From sequence record NC_025447.1: 64,000 nt of DNA; one strand, given 5' to 3'. The notes under the pieces were generated by a model. That model did not search any database. It had not been told where the DNA came from and saw nothing but the letters and a program-made list of their open reading frames with translations. Positions 1 through 64,000 of the stretch are shown here, in pieces. Origin of the DNA: Escherichia phage 121Q. How positions within the stretch are numbered: the stretch's first letter is position 1; every line of letters begins with the position of its first letter. A program made the position numbers and the translations under genes.

Positions 1-80
1 AAACATTTAATAATCATGATATTTGCATTACATTAAAAACACCTATTAGTATTGTAATTAAAAAAAATAAAGATGATGAA

Positions 81-383
81 TTGACATTATCTATTGGTCG
101 TGATAAAATCATTTTAAGTAATTTGTCTGAAGAAGAATTCTTTCAAAGAAGTACTATTATCGATATGAAAGATTTCACATATGAATCATTGGTTGAACTC
201 AATACACGTTTTAACGATATTCAGGAACGATTGCGACCAATTCTTCGTATCGAAGAAGAAGCCTGGATTGAAAGTATTAGGAAGATGCAAGAAATGTTGA
301 AAGAAAATATTAACAATCTGGGTAAAGCTACAATGGAATTTGGTAAAACTTTTAAACTGAACTTTTCAAAGGATCGTAAATGA
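81..383 (+). CDS. hypothetical protein, EExFFQxST-motif family
   Basis: ORF track; product contains EEEFFQRSTI. Confidence 0.45.
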   Translation: MTLSIGRDKIILSNLSEEEFFQRSTIIDMKDFTYESLVELNTRFNDIQERLRPILRIEEEAWIESIRKMQEMLKENINNLGKATMEFGKTFKLNFSKDRK

Positions 384-835
384 AAATTGATAATTTGATT
401 CATGTTTTAGGATCTTTACATAAAATATTATCACATCTACATGAGATAAAGAAACTGGGATTTAACATCTCAAATTCAATTGAAACTACATTTAAATATC
501 AATCAATTACTGGTGATGGTTATTACATAATCGAATATACCTATGAAACCGATCCAGACTTCTATCCTCTTACGTTGAGAATTTATCCAACAAATCCGAG
601 AGGAATTCACGACATATCATCAATTTCACTTGATCCAGATGGTGAAACGAGTATTGAATACAATAATGATTCAAAACCAGAATTTTACATTGATGATATT
701 AAAATGATGTTCAACGATGAATATGTGTTCCAGCAAAGTACTGTGCATGATGTTGGAAGTACTAATGGACAATTTTGGAATACATGTTATTATCATATGA
801 TTGAAATTTGTAAATTACTAAAAGGCGATGATTAA
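380..835 (+). CDS. hypothetical protein, EExFFQxST-motif family
   Basis: ORF track; product contains DEYVFQQSTV; start overlaps upstream stop. Confidence 0.45.
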   Translation: MKIDNLIHVLGSLHKILSHLHEIKKLGFNISNSIETTFKYQSITGDGYYIIEYTYETDPDFYPLTLRIYPTNPRGIHDISSISLDPDGETSIEYNNDSKPEFYIDDIKMMFNDEYVFQQSTVHDVGSTNGQFWNTCYYHMIEICKLLKGDD

Positions 836-1218
836 TGAAATACAGCATTGAAGTACATTACACTACAGGGGACACTGAAAATTGTTATGACGTTCTTAAT
901 ACAATTGATATTCAATGGTCTTCTAAAGAGGAAGCAGTTGCTGCTTTACAGTGCCTAAAAGAGCATTGGGTGTTTTATATGAAGCAAGATAATTGCTATA
1001 CTAAAGAACACGAAACTATCGTTGAAAATGCTAAACAAAAAGAGTGGTTTGACCCAATATCACCAGAATATTCATTCTTGGTTAAAGTTGGCGATGTGAC
1101 AGTTCCATTACGAACACCGTGGAACGGCTACTTTGAAACTCTTCATAATGCACGAGTTGTCGCTGTTGATAATCCTGAGCAAATCGATTTCGATTCATTG
1201 GACTGGAAAAAACTATGA
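835..1218 (+). CDS. hypothetical protein
   Basis: ORF track; ATGA overlap with upstream gene. Confidence 0.45.
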   Translation: MKYSIEVHYTTGDTENCYDVLNTIDIQWSSKEEAVAALQCLKEHWVFYMKQDNCYTKEHETIVENAKQKEWFDPISPEYSFLVKVGDVTVPLRTPWNGYFETLHNARVVAVDNPEQIDFDSLDWKKL

Positions 1219-1658
1219 CAGTACTGCACCAATTGAAGAAGGTTAAGCATCCAGTTGTATACGAGGATTGGAAACGACAGAAATTGATGGGTGATTTTTA
1301 TTTCCCAAAATCTAAAGTTCTTGCGAATTCAAGATGTACATATGTCACACATAATTATAAAGATACAGTATTTGTTGAAATGGGTTTCAATCCATCAAAT
1401 ACAATGTTCAGTACTAACCAGACATTTTACAAATTTCATATCAATAAAGATTCATTTTCTATTATGATTATAAAATTTTTAGTTGAAGATCTGGTATACA
1501 GTGAAGAAAGAGTTCCTTTATCATTAGTGGATATTCCTTATGATAATTTAGAGGAAATGTACTTCCAACAGTTGACAGTGCAAGAAAACTTCGGTATGAT
1601 AGGACTTCAAGAGTTAGAGATGATTAAGCAAATTCGTGATATCTACTTTAAGGAGTAA
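1215..1658 (+). CDS. hypothetical protein, EExFFQxST-motif family
   Basis: ORF track; product contains EEMYFQQLTV. Confidence 0.45.
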   Translation: MTVLHQLKKVKHPVVYEDWKRQKLMGDFYFPKSKVLANSRCTYVTHNYKDTVFVEMGFNPSNTMFSTNQTFYKFHINKDSFSIMIIKFLVEDLVYSEERVPLSLVDIPYDNLEEMYFQQLTVQENFGMIGLQELEMIKQIRDIYFKE

Positions 1659-2191
1659 CTATGCCAGTACGTAACAGTACTTCACGCTTTACGCTTCAAC
1701 AGAAAGCAGATCTTTTGAATATGGCTAACAAAGATTCTAATTTTTACTATCTAGTACTCGGTGGGTCAGTAGAAAAGATTGACCTACGTGAGTGTATGAA
1801 ATAACAAAAGGGGACTAAAAATGAGTCTACGTGAATCATGGGAACAATTTAAAGAAGAGATTGGTTATCGTGGTGTTAAGATTGAAAAAATCAATCGAAC
1901 CGAAAGCATCAAAGCCAGTACTAATGGCACTACCTATGATCGTTATGATGAAAAGTATGGTTTGCATTCTAAACCGAAGGATACTGAATAATGGTATACA
2001 CTAACATTTTTACTGGTATTATGCGTAAATTTATTAATGGTACTGGATACGTATCTAATGACAACGGTAGTACATGGGTAAAAAATAATACGTCTGAATC
2101 TTTAGTAAAAAGTCTTCCGTATTATAAAGCTTGACACATGAAAATGGAGTATATATAATACTCCTATATTAATTAAACGAGGATATACGAA

Positions 2192-2764
2192 ATGGCTGGT
2201 GTTGATAAAATTTGTGAATTCAGTTCAGATTATGAAGGTTACGAGATGTACAAGTCCAAGCGTAATCACATTCAAGTACTGTCAAAGTACCGTAAAGAAT
2301 TCCGAGGCCACAAAGCAACATTGTATGTTTTTGAGAATGGATATTCTGAAGTTTTCACAAGTGGTGGGTACAGTACAGCTAACATGGCACATATCAACCC
2401 AAACCCAACTGAAGATGATTGGAATAGTGGTAACGCTTTTCGTATTTCAATTTTGAATAAAATGAATCGTTACGACCGTTATTGTACATTCTTTGAAAAT
2501 ATTTCAGAATACAAACAAGCATTAAAGAAATATAATCAACGCTTACTAATGAATTATGATTACATTCTTCATGTGCCAACTGTTCCAGGTCAGGTTAATG
2601 GTCTGTATACGAATAGTACACATGATTTAACTGCGGTGAAGCGTCGCCTCAAACGTATGTTGGGTTGTCGTAATTTAACAATCAAGGTTATGCGTAATGA
2701 ATCAATGTATAACTTTTTAGATGTACTACACTACACACTGAAGGATAATAATGGAAACGATTAA
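2192..2764 (+). CDS. hypothetical protein
   Basis: ORF track; preceded by TTGACA...TATATAAT promoter-like sequence near 2130-2160. Confidence 0.45.
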   Translation: MAGVDKICEFSSDYEGYEMYKSKRNHIQVLSKYRKEFRGHKATLYVFENGYSEVFTSGGYSTANMAHINPNPTEDDWNSGNAFRISILNKMNRYDRYCTFFENISEYKQALKKYNQRLLMNYDYILHVPTVPGQVNGLYTNSTHDLTAVKRRLKRMLGCRNLTIKVMRNESMYNFLDVLHYTLKDNNGND

Positions 2765-62428: not shown

Positions 62429-62490
62429 CCCTCCTTTATTCATTATACTATATTTAATACAAATAAGAAAGCCAGTACAGTGTACTGGCA
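62429..62490 (-). promoter_or_regulatory. paralog junction cassette: terminator hairpin + promoter-like box + RBS
   Basis: GCCAGTACagtGTACTGGC + TTTCTTATTTG + TATTAAATATAGTATAATGAATAAAGGAGGGAAAT. Confidence 0.5.
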
Positions 62491-62495
62491 TTATA

Positions 62496-63635
62496 TTATT
62501 TCCACGGTAGAAGTGAATCAGGAACCCTTGTTGGTACAGTAGTTGAAGACATTCCAGTAAGATTGGGTACACCACATGTGTATAAATTATTATATTCGTC
62601 AACTAACATCGTATAAGAATAGCTCTTACAAAAACTACTAAGATTACTACCTTCTAATGCAGTAAGATCCATTTCAGCGAATGATGTTATATACATATCA
62701 GTTGTACCAATACCACATTGACCATTTGAATTAAGGCCACATGAAAATAACTTATTATTATTATTAATTATACAGGATGGTCCGGTAAGGTTTGTCCCAA
62801 GCTCACCCACCAACTCCACTTCTCCTTGGAATGATAAATTTGGAATTAATGTACTCATTGGGGCTACTGACCTATTTCCTGTACCTGCTTGTCCATAGTC
62901 GTTAATAGATGCAACTTTAACATTACCATCATTAAGAAATATATAAGAAGTTTCATTTGTATTGACTGCTTTAATTGCATTACTAATCGAAGTATCTTGT
63001 GTAAATGTGAGCAAGTTTTGTGTCGTCGTTCCTGATACAAACGTTCTACCTGCATACCAATATGAACCATCATTTAGTACTAATCCAGTACTATATATTG
63101 CACAACCAGCACTGATAACATTTTCTATTGTACTATAGGTGAATCGTGAAACGCTTGAAGTTGATCCATTCCCAAAAACACCACCAGTACCAGCACCACA
63201 GTAGAACCACTTTCCATTTTTTAAAAATACACGCATACACGAAGATATCACAACACTATCAATATCATCTGCACTGACACCGAAATCAGTAAAGTTCTGT
63301 GTTATATCAACCCAAACGCCGTTAGTGTTTGAAGATAGTATTGGAATAACAGTACGTCTACCAGTGTACCAAATAGTACCATCTTTCTTTATAGCAATTG
63401 TTCCTTGTACCCCACCCCAATATCGTGTAACATTTGAGTTGACAAGAGTCCATTCAGTTGAAGAGTCCAATGAACTATTACCACTTTGTCCATATGCTGA
63501 AGAACCAAACCAATATAGATTGCCATTTGTGTGTAAATAAAATTTGGCATCAGCAGAACATTGTAACCTGTTTTTAGGTAGAATCAGTTCAGGTGCGATA
63601 TTCCCGTACTTAACCATTCTTGCAAAAGGTAACAT
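62496..63635 (-). CDS. RCC1-like beta-propeller protein with MLPF N-terminal module
   Basis: ATG at 63635 (MLPFARMVKYGNIAP) after AAGGAGGGAAT; YGQSGNSS / GQAGTGN repeats. Confidence 0.6.
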   Translation of the reverse strand: MLPFARMVKYGNIAPELILPKNRLQCSADAKFYLHTNGNLYWFGSSAYGQSGNSSLDSSTEWTLVNSNVTRYWGGVQGTIAIKKDGTIWYTGRRTVIPILSSNTNGVWVDITQNFTDFGVSADDIDSVVISSCMRVFLKNGKWFYCGAGTGGVFGNGSTSSVSRFTYSTIENVISAGCAIYSTGLVLNDGSYWYAGRTFVSGTTTQNLLTFTQDTSISNAIKAVNTNETSYIFLNDGNVKVASINDYGQAGTGNRSVAPMSTLIPNLSFQGEVELVGELGTNLTGPSCIINNNNKLFSCGLNSNGQCGIGTTDMYITSFAEMDLTALEGSNLSSFCKSYSYTMLVDEYNNLYTCGVPNLTGMSSTTVPTRVPDSLLPWK

Positions 63636-63639
63636 ATTC

Positions 63640-63700
63640 CCTCCTTTATTTGTTATACTATATTTAATACAAATAAGAAAGCCAGTACAGTGTACTGGCA
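63640..63700 (-). promoter_or_regulatory. paralog junction cassette: terminator hairpin + promoter-like box + RBS
   Basis: Near-identical to cassette at 62429-62490. Confidence 0.5.
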
Positions 63701-63705
63701 TTATG

Positions 63706-64000
63706 TTATTTTGGTAAATCAATTTTAGTAAAGACTGCAACATCCTCGATTGCACCTGGAATGGCGTAATACGATCCAGTACTATACACATCTCCATTTT
63801 TGGTTAATATCGATGTCAAACCATCACTAAAAAGAACATCCCTAATCTCACTAACTTCAACGGGTAATTGTAAATTGGTAGCACTATATATAGCACCAGT
63901 TTGAGAATTGTTTAATCCCAAACCACGGTTCGCCCCAACACCCTTCTGATATGTACTAGTAATTACCATTTGTGTAGCAGTATTTAAGGCAGGTGAATTC
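63706..64000 (-). CDS. 3' end of a further paralog (partial; start beyond window)
   Basis: ORF 63706-63969 continues to window edge; same tandem arrangement. Confidence 0.45.
   Translation of the reverse strand, partial: NSPALNTATQMVITSTYQKGVGANRGLGLNNSQTGAIYSATNLQLPVEVSEIRDVLFSDGLTSILTKNGDVYSTGSYYAIPGAIEDVAVFTKIDLPK

Follow-up and report, generated by a model that had tools for sequence, protein, structure and literature searches.

Over-representation of the palindrome AGTACT in Escherichia phage 121Q and related jumbo phages, and its possible role as a mark of phage DNA

The 64,000-nucleotide stretch of Escherichia phage 121Q analysed here (sequence record NC_025447.1; "the window" denotes the whole of it) is 93-95% identical to the Asteriusvirus jumbo coliphages (JP4, UB, PBECO4 and others). 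It carries protein-coding genes, which we called with an open reading frame (ORF) heuristic of our own, a tRNA region, sigma70-like promoters, terminator-like hairpins and an array of RCC1-repeat genes. Spread along its full length is one short sequence, the 6-bp palindrome AGTACT, which is the target site of ScaI and which forms the subject of this report.

Excess and DNA-level nature of AGTACT

AGTACT occurs 184 times in the window, where Markov models of orders 0/1, 2 and 3 predict 19-22, 35 and 72 copies, respectively. This amounts to a 9.6-fold enrichment; the runner-up among the 6-bp palindromes is merely 1.9-fold enriched, the sub-words GTAC and AGTAC/GTACT are in 2.3- and 4.3-fold excess, and the one-mismatch neighbours, taken as nine strand-paired classes, stand at only 0.64-2.3 times expectation. 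The initial annotation of this DNA had drawn attention to a longer, 8-bp palindrome, CAGTACTG, of which it reckoned at least about 30 exact copies against roughly one expected. Exact counting gives 38, every one of the 14 positions that it quoted lies within 11 bp of a true copy, and 100 dinucleotide-preserving shuffles yield a mean of 0.93 (maximum 4). With the order of the Markov model rising from 0 to 6, the expectation for CAGTACTG climbs from 0.6 through 0.8, 2.2, 5.6, 14.8 and 28 to 38. The excess thus persists at order 3 (z = 13.7), the order from which the annotation had proposed that it be checked, and at order 4; it is absorbed only at orders 5-6, which places the signal in the motif's own 6- and 7-mer sub-words. 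Flank information around AGTACT is limited to positions -1 (C, 45%) and +1 (G, 46%), and these two preferences are independent, since 184 x 0.45 x 0.46 = 38, precisely the count of CAGTACTG. The real unit is AGTACT, and CAGTACTG is the subset that arises when AGTACT is combined with independent flank preferences; the 8-mer as the unit has to be given up, the more so because its C/G flank is weaker in other genera. That the element is a palindrome and that its flank preferences are symmetric points to recognition of duplex DNA.

The sites are evenly spread at 2.9 per kb (7-16 per 4 kb), the coding and non-coding densities being 2.7 and 3.9 per kb, respectively. The 146 sites inside ORFs fall into frames 0/1/2 as 64/33/49 (4/10/13 for CAGTACTG), and 37 lie between ORFs, just as the annotation had described copies in all frames of coding sequence. 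When synonymous codons were shuffled within each gene, 41.4 ± 5.5 coding AGTACT were obtained (maximum 57) against the 146 observed (z = 19); together with the frame analysis, this rules out a codon or peptide cause. The window has 133 Ser-Thr dipeptides, 64 of them written AGT-ACT, where 86 would be expected, and 159 Val-Leu against 103, so that both dipeptides are inflated. A few repeated long elements, which the annotation had raised as a possible explanation, are likewise not the cause: the flanks of 176 of the 184 sites (and of 34 of the 38 copies of CAGTACTG) are less than 70% identical to those of any other site, and only 8 share 70% or more. Across a whole related genome, the spacing of AGTACT is close to Poisson and shows no short-range periodicity. 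The annotation's claim of a DNA-level signal is thus borne out by the synonymous shuffle, by the occurrence of sites in every frame and, at similar density, in non-coding DNA, by the unique flanks and by conservation above matched controls (see below). Its interpretation as a whole is partly supported; among the functions that it offered as candidates, a purely structural element is the least supported.

AGT, the first codon of an in-frame AGT-ACT, accounts for 31% of the Ser codons in the window. The window also encodes a tRNA-Ser with the anticodon ACU, a well-formed cloverleaf with a long variable arm, which is possibly a translational accommodation of the motif; a Ser tRNA with A34 is, to our knowledge, unusual in bacteria and phages.

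The annotation had further placed copies in promoter spacers and in the arms of terminators, and both observations hold. (C)AGTACTG is found in 6 of the 23 sigma70-like promoters of the window in a fixed register, with AGTACT starting 7 nt before the -10 element. In the relative TH47, introduced below, 11 of 70 such promoters carry the motif, 10 of them at the same distance from the -10. About 8 hairpins in the window have the motif in their arms, as AGTACT or as one-off versions of the 8-mer, and most of them are followed by T runs (Table 1). Promoter copies (6) and hairpin copies (about 14) together make up about 20 of the 184 sites, and being so small a minority, they represent co-opted uses and not the cause of the excess.

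Two further observations concern the same classes of features. The RCC1-repeat genes form a paralogous array on the minus strand, most of them being followed by a GCCAGTAC...GTACTGGC terminator; their annotation in relatives, as "regulator of chromosome condensation" or "DNA condensation protein", is a matter of naming only. Sigma70-like promoters of a second, near-identical family share a spacer of their own, and it is these that put 8-mers of the GGTCAGCC type at the head of the order-3 ranking.

Table 1. Positions of AGTACT-bearing and neighbouring features in the window
Feature	Position	Strand	Remarks
AGTACT field	1-64000		184 sites, 38 of them CAGTACTG; counts, unique flanks, synonymous shuffle
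Hairpin AAATACCCAGT-CAAGT-ACTGGGTATTT	5998-6024	+	Followed by T run; AGTACT across loop/stem junction
Sigma70-like early promoter TTGACT-N16-TATAAT	10187-10214	+	CAGTACTG at 3' end of spacer; AGTACT 7 nt before -10
Promoter of the same TTGACT/TATAAT type	10666-10694	+	Spacer ...TTCAGTACTGA-TATAAT; TG = extended -10
Promoter of the same type	11425-11453	+	5' of tRNA-Ser(ACU)/tRNA-Met pair
tRNA-Ser, anticodon ACU	11464-11555	+	Reads AGU
14-bp perfect palindrome ATTCAGTACTGAAT	13377-13390		Spacer in tRNA region
16-bp perfect palindrome TATTCAGTACTGAATA	13497-13512		
Sigma70-like promoter	28615-28642	+	CAGTACTG in spacer
Sigma70-like promoter	32925-32952	+	TAGTACTG in spacer
Second family of sigma70-like promoters	34698-34727, 45279-45308, 46561-46590, 48729-48758	+	Spacer TCGGTCAGCC(C)TTTTTTG(C/T)
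Sigma70-like promoter	43510-43537	+	CAGTACTG in spacer
Hairpin AATCCAGTACT-TGAT-AGTACTGGATT	52409-52434	+	AGTACT in both arms
Array of RCC1-repeat genes	53089-63797	-	Paralogous
Intrinsic-terminator-like hairpin, arms GCCAGTAC/GTACTGGC	54286-54309	-	3' of minus-strand RCC1-repeat gene; A run on + (T run on -)
Terminator-like hairpin GCCAGTA-loop-TACTGGC	56669-56687	-	
Terminator-like hairpin GCCAGTAC-TTGA-GTACTGGC	57957-57976	-	Two AGTACT copies
Terminator-like hairpin AAAGCCAGTA-TCAAG-TACTGGCTTT	59177-59201	-	
Terminator-like hairpin AGCCAGTAC-TTT-GTACTGGCT	61207-61227	-	

Occurrence and conservation among related phages

TH47, an unannotated relative with a complete assembled genome of 352,450 bp, is the one, unverified record on which our whole-genome analysis rests; the other genera were sampled at 30-140 kb each. 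The TH47 genome contains 917 AGTACT against 104 expected (8.8-fold, 2.6 per kb) and 203 CAGTACTG against 5. Observed and expected counts of AGTACT are 94/14 in the structural-gene region of PBECO4 and, in the respective samples, 73/6 in Klebsiella phage RaK2, 114/14 in Cronobacter phage GAP32, 68/8 in Serratia phage BF and 64/9 in Xanthomonas phage XbC2, such that the excess is common to all five and is 7-11-fold in the four phages of related genera. There is no excess in the more distant PA5oct (1/8.8), in T4 (2/4) or in 50 kb of E. coli K-12 (3/4.8, 0.06 per kb), and in the unrelated coliphage genus Justusliebigvirus (alia, 80-130 kb) AGTACT is depleted, with 0 copies against 12.9 expected in 50 kb. 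The AGTACT excess is thus characteristic of the RaK2/PBECO4/GAP32 clade of jumbo phages. Its avoidance in Justusliebigvirus and PA5oct fits a restriction target, and suggests that phages in these hosts do face ScaI-type restriction. The preference for C at -1 varies by genus, from 2.7-3.1-fold in Asteriusvirus and RaK2 through 2.0-fold in GAP32 and XbC2 to 1.5-fold in BF, and G at this position is disfavoured in all genera compared.

The sites are also conserved beyond matched control hexamers. Of the window sites with an aligned counterpart in TH47, whose DNA is 85% identical, 72.7% have kept the motif, as compared with 50% of composition-matched hexamers and 48% of one-off neighbours; the corresponding figures for AGTACT and matched hexamers are 92.9% and 84.9% in JP4, and 92.5% and 86.1% in EC22.5-2. 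Sites unique to the window and to TH47 are roughly balanced (32 against 35), so that gains about equal losses, and the alternative sequences at non-shared sites are heterogeneous, AGTTCT being the commonest. Between genera, positions are shared by 18-33% of the sites at about 61-63% amino-acid identity and by 40-48% among the closer GAP32, BF and XbC2, i.e. by 15-48% overall depending on divergence, while the 7-11-fold density is maintained. Judging from these alignments, AGTACT is evidently under purifying selection with turnover. Conservation, balanced turnover and steady density are together typical of a function that draws on many sites, with weak selection on each.

The same phages lack another palindrome altogether. 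GCGC is absent from the window (25-29 expected) and from all 352 kb of TH47 (172-329 expected), as well as from the GAP32, BF, XbC2 and RaK2 samples; its frequency is normal in PA5oct, T4, Justusliebigvirus and E. coli, the last with about 7 per kb in the 50-kb sample. Among the genomes sampled, the GCGC void and the AGTACT excess thus delimit exactly the same clade. Also missing from the window are at least 12 GC-rich hexamer palindromes; the window therefore shows the classical pattern of restriction-site avoidance for these words and for GCGC and the reverse sign for AGTACT. We found no description of the AGTACT excess or of the GCGC absence in these phages in the full-text literature, subscription literature lying outside the search. 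On a separate note, the most under-represented hexamer is TAAATA/TATTTA (47 against 136 in the window, 203 against 628 in TH47) and TATAAATA is nearly absent; this rarity may reflect avoidance of late-promoter-like sequence outside promoters.

The terminal repeat and the polar AGTACA arrays

The G17 record starts and ends with the same 20,668 bp, a direct terminal repeat the length of which agrees with that given for Sharanji, a member of Asteriusvirus (PMC11895373). By identity to the G17 ends, the repeat can be placed at 87,462-105,970 of TH47 (18.5 kb). It has the highest AGTACT density of this genome, 6.65 per kb as compared with 2.44 per kb elsewhere, together with a higher GC content (0.39), and it is present at both physical ends of the virion DNA. 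The first 25 kb of GAP32 are also very dense, at about 6 AGTACT per kb.

Directly before the repeat, over 15.7 kb (TH47 71.8-87.5 kb) in which all genes point in the same direction, the palindrome gives way to a half-palindromic variant. The first segment of 8.4 kb contains no AGTACT, and its plus strand has 48 TGTACT against 1 AGTACA. The middle segment of 2.5 kb contains 16 palindromic AGTACT. The last segment, 4.8 kb long, is again free of AGTACT, with 9 AGTACA against 0 TGTACT on the plus strand. The variant copies of the first array share the flanks of the palindrome (ttCAGTACAg) and lie in all frames; 38 are seen, as compared with 12 after synonymous shuffling, so that the variant, too, is under selection. 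Ten proteins of the first array, scanned against PHROGs, matched only families of unknown function, and a search of Rfam gave no match in the islands. The same arrangement is seen in ECO103 4-12-1, conservation of the region extends to all Asteriusvirus genomes, and strict polarity is confined to 13 kb adjoining the terminal repeat of these relatives. To us this indicates, without demonstrating it, that the two strands' copies of AGTAC are open to independent reading, and that the function has to do either with DNA ends or with the way in which the repeat junction is processed.

A T5-like first-step transfer, with an AGTACT-free island as the end that is injected first, was also considered, as the Sharanji numbering starts at the island edge. 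It was dropped once the real 20,668-bp repeat had been located from the G17 ends, because the islands lie just inward of the right-hand repeat and not at a terminus. As a separate observation, TH47 has 23 copies of the E. coli Chi octamer GCTGGTGG where 2.7 would be expected; six of them, all in one orientation, lie within 6.3 kb of the terminal repeat (88,835-95,058, minus strand).

Possible readers and rival explanations

The closest known counterpart of AGTACT is HIP1 (GCGATCGC), a cyanobacterial palindrome in 15- to 300-fold excess that is conserved in ORFs and between them, lacks a function at the level of the gene and has been associated with orphan methyltransferases (PMC5861425, PMC4390886). 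Each of the two is a short perfect palindrome in order-of-magnitude or greater excess; both occur about once per gene, inside ORFs as well as between them, at the level of DNA, and both are conserved in relatives beyond controls, which indicates selection. For neither is a peptide, RNA or gene-regulatory role supported, and both share their genome with orphan methyltransferases. HIP1, however, is a GC-rich 8-mer of a cellular chromosome, whereas AGTACT belongs to a virus and has an AT-rich 6-mer core with soft flanks; HIP sites have a cognate methyltransferase, while none of those examined in the phage clade, of C5 and N6-adenine type, could be assigned to AGTACT; and HIP sites have a periodicity of 10-90 kb, the spacing of AGTACT being near-Poisson at short range, where it was assessed. 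Unlike HIP1, AGTACT is also a restriction target that other phages avoid, its density peaks in a terminal repeat, and a strand-polar half-palindromic variant replaces it locally. Given the viral genome, the AT-rich hexamer core and the near-Poisson short-range spacing, we regard it as an analogue and not as a member of the HIP family. A second comparison is with Chi (GCTGGTGG) and KOPS (GGGNAGGG), over-represented oriented motifs that are read by RecBCD and FtsK, respectively. Like AGTACT, these are dense, selection-maintained, DNA-level motifs that run through coding sequence, and they mark the cell's own DNA and guide its handling; their orientation is echoed by the strict polarity of the AGTACA variant near the terminal repeat of the relatives. 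Bulk AGTACT is nevertheless palindromic, lacks a genome-wide skew, and is about 10 times as dense as Chi is in E. coli.

AGTACT is a selection-maintained, genome-wide iterated palindrome comparable to HIP1, and its likeliest role would be that of a high-density recognition site for a predicted, clade-encoded, sequence-specific DNA protein with a sharpness resembling that of Type II enzymes. We infer that a dedicated protein reader of this sort exists and that the mark separates phage from host DNA. The predicted reader might be a dimer, or it might recognize the half-unit AGTAC strand by strand; AGTACT would mark phage DNA as self, and an activity that protects, loads or tracks would act along the whole of it during replication, recombination, packaging or the protection of ends. 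Such a mark would be conspicuous, since AGTACT occurs about once per 350-400 bp in the phage, about 50 times the density of the 50-kb E. coli K-12 sample. We put this reading forward tentatively, as a serious possibility that stops somewhat short of being probable.

Several points weigh against it. Among the candidates examined (SlmA and the methyltransferases), no reader protein was identified, and none of the methyltransferases, i.e. the DNMT3-like C5 enzyme, the phage-type N6-adenine enzyme and the third putative N6-adenine enzyme in GAP32, has a known AGTACT specificity. Over about 330 kb of the bulk TH47 genome, AGTACV and BGTACT are unskewed; the polar arrays were seen only in Asteriusvirus (TH47, ECO103 4-12-1) and not in 140 kb of GAP32, and the polarity of the second array is the weaker evidence because this array is short and lies within a tandem family of tiny genes. 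Finally, the host density derives from a single 50-kb E. coli sample, and we assume that the function is additive over about 900 sites.

The self-mark has to be weighed against explanations that need no reader of this kind, or a different one. Were AGTACT a gene-expression element or by-product (promoter spacer or extended -10, terminator stem, RNA or peptide motif, codon-pair bias, repeat copies), its fixed register in promoters of the window and of TH47 and its place in hairpin arms would follow naturally. However, these uses leave all but about 20 of the 184 sites unaccounted for, intragenic sites occupy all three frames at a number that synonymous shuffling does not reproduce, the flanks are unique, and the symmetric palindrome points to duplex DNA. 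A gene-expression role survives only as a secondary, co-opted use and is contradicted as a general explanation, to which we would attach next to no weight. Neutral biased repair or mutational drive, as in very short patch (VSP)-like repair or in Elhai's model for HIP, would have a clade-specific mismatch enzyme convert near-cognates to AGTACT, leaving the sites functionless. Such a drive would likewise act in all frames and in non-coding DNA, in a clade-specific manner, and would mimic site conservation and balance gains with losses. Yet a VSP-type drive is expected to deplete its precursors, and because none of the one-mismatch neighbours is strongly depleted (ratios of 1.0-2.3, only AGGACT/AGTCCT being at 0.64), it is not supported. 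The heterogeneity of the differences between genomes, with AGTTCT in front, the 2.7-fold density gap between the terminal repeat and the rest, the two regions that carry a polar variant instead, and the costly distortion of amino-acid composition also speak against it, and we hold it to be very unlikely. A host reader comes into view with SlmA, which the phage hosts possess and whose site GTGAGTACTCAC shares its six central bases with the phage motif: this site is a 12-bp palindrome, GTRAGYRCTYAC, in which G1, T2, A4 and G5 are required along with a purine at position 3 (PMC3020112). Cells infected with Sharanji filament and are filled with phage DNA while the phage encodes no known division inhibitor (PMC11895373), and hundreds of sites on replicating phage DNA could in principle activate SlmA and thereby block FtsZ, which would account for the filamentation. 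The strongly needed flanking bases (G1, T2 and the purine at 3) are missing, though: there is no full degenerate site in the window or in 352 kb of TH47, half matches number 27 of 917 in TH47, below the rough composition-based chance of about 47, and 46% of the TH47 sites have C at -1 but only 8% have G, which is disfavoured throughout. The hijacking of SlmA is rejected on these flanks, and we consider it highly improbable.

Two other explanations carry more weight than these, though less than the self-mark. A strict analogy to HIP1 would make AGTACT or GTAC the target of a clade-encoded orphan methyltransferase or base modifier, which would render some 900 otherwise lethal ScaI-type sites harmless and allow the modified sites to be read. 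The motif is an exact known Type II specificity that unrelated phages avoid, the clade encodes at least two to three orphan methyltransferases, and each of the cyanobacterial high-frequency palindromes is paired with a cognate methyltransferase (PMC4390886). For RaK2, two DNA methyltransferases have been reported, most restriction enzymes are resisted, only methylation-tolerant ones cut the DNA, and bisulfite data indicate CpG methylation (PMC3622015). The C5 cytosine methyltransferase, a protein of 286 aa encoded about 0.7 kb 5' of the window start in relatives (PBECO4 221343-222206), is however DNMT3-like, with eukaryotic DNMT3 catalytic domains as its best solved-structure matches (E ~1e-23), and is thus probably a CpG enzyme, which fits the RaK2 methylation, and AGTACT contains no CpG. 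It also has a 45% identical homologue in Justusliebigvirus, whose 50-kb sample is free of AGTACT, and it was rejected as the AGTACT enzyme. The second methyltransferase of the clade belongs to the Dam family of N6-adenine enzymes, which is uninformative on specificity, and GAP32 encodes a further putative N6-adenine methyltransferase. The AGTACA arrays, with their single orientation, are left unexplained by a palindromic methyltransferase, and a 9-fold enrichment does not follow from methylation alone. As judged from the methyltransferases examined, the epigenetic account is unsupported, and we think it unlikely. (CpG itself is only mildly depleted in the window, at 0.76.) Under oriented tracking, an enzyme that translocates along the DNA would read AGTAC(W) on one strand, with the palindrome as the cheapest supply of both orientations; the motif could be a Chi-like attenuator of a helicase-nuclease that enters from the ends, a guide of the KOPS type, or a site for a primase or loader. 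The strictly polar arrays by the repeat (TGTACT 48:1, AGTACA 9:0) despite a single gene orientation, the density peak in the repeat and hence at both physical DNA ends, and the 6-mer CAGTAC, which is as over-represented as AGTACT (z = 80), would all agree with it. But polarity is missing from the other 330 kb and from the GAP32 samples, and the palindromes are absent from the polar arrays, not merely unnecessary there, which tracking does not predict. We know of no cognate translocase for an AGTAC-type motif, and we regard oriented tracking as quite unlikely.

Returning to the self-mark, it is conceivable that it is part of a sequence-only code that tells phage from host DNA, with GCGC purged and AGTACT saturated (2.6 against 0.06 per kb), in place of the base modification or the nucleus-like shell that other large phages use. 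Phage enzymes would then destroy or ignore DNA that has GCGC and lacks AGTACT, the reader of AGTACT or AGTAC would protect, prime or package phage DNA, and the polar AGTACA arrays by the repeat would provide this reader with a fixed point of entry or origin. This extension is a decidedly doubtful one.

Phage genomes are known to avoid short palindromes, which are cut by restriction enzymes. A clade of phages with genomes of about 350 kb does the opposite, and does so with a genuine restriction site that neighbouring phages purge. The enrichment implies that these phages have a way of rendering about 900 ScaI-type sites harmless, and that AGTACT serves a positive function worth the distortion of proteins. 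As lytic coliphages with a 6-bp site and E. coli K-12 as a host, they offer a compact and genetically tractable counterpart of the 30-year-old HIP1 puzzle. Entry points to the protection and processing of DNA in jumbo phages that do not form a nucleus are provided by the complete lack of GCGC, the AGTACT-rich terminal repeat and the polar arrays, and AGTACT density combined with zero GCGC provides a simple signature by which the clade can be recognized in metagenomes.

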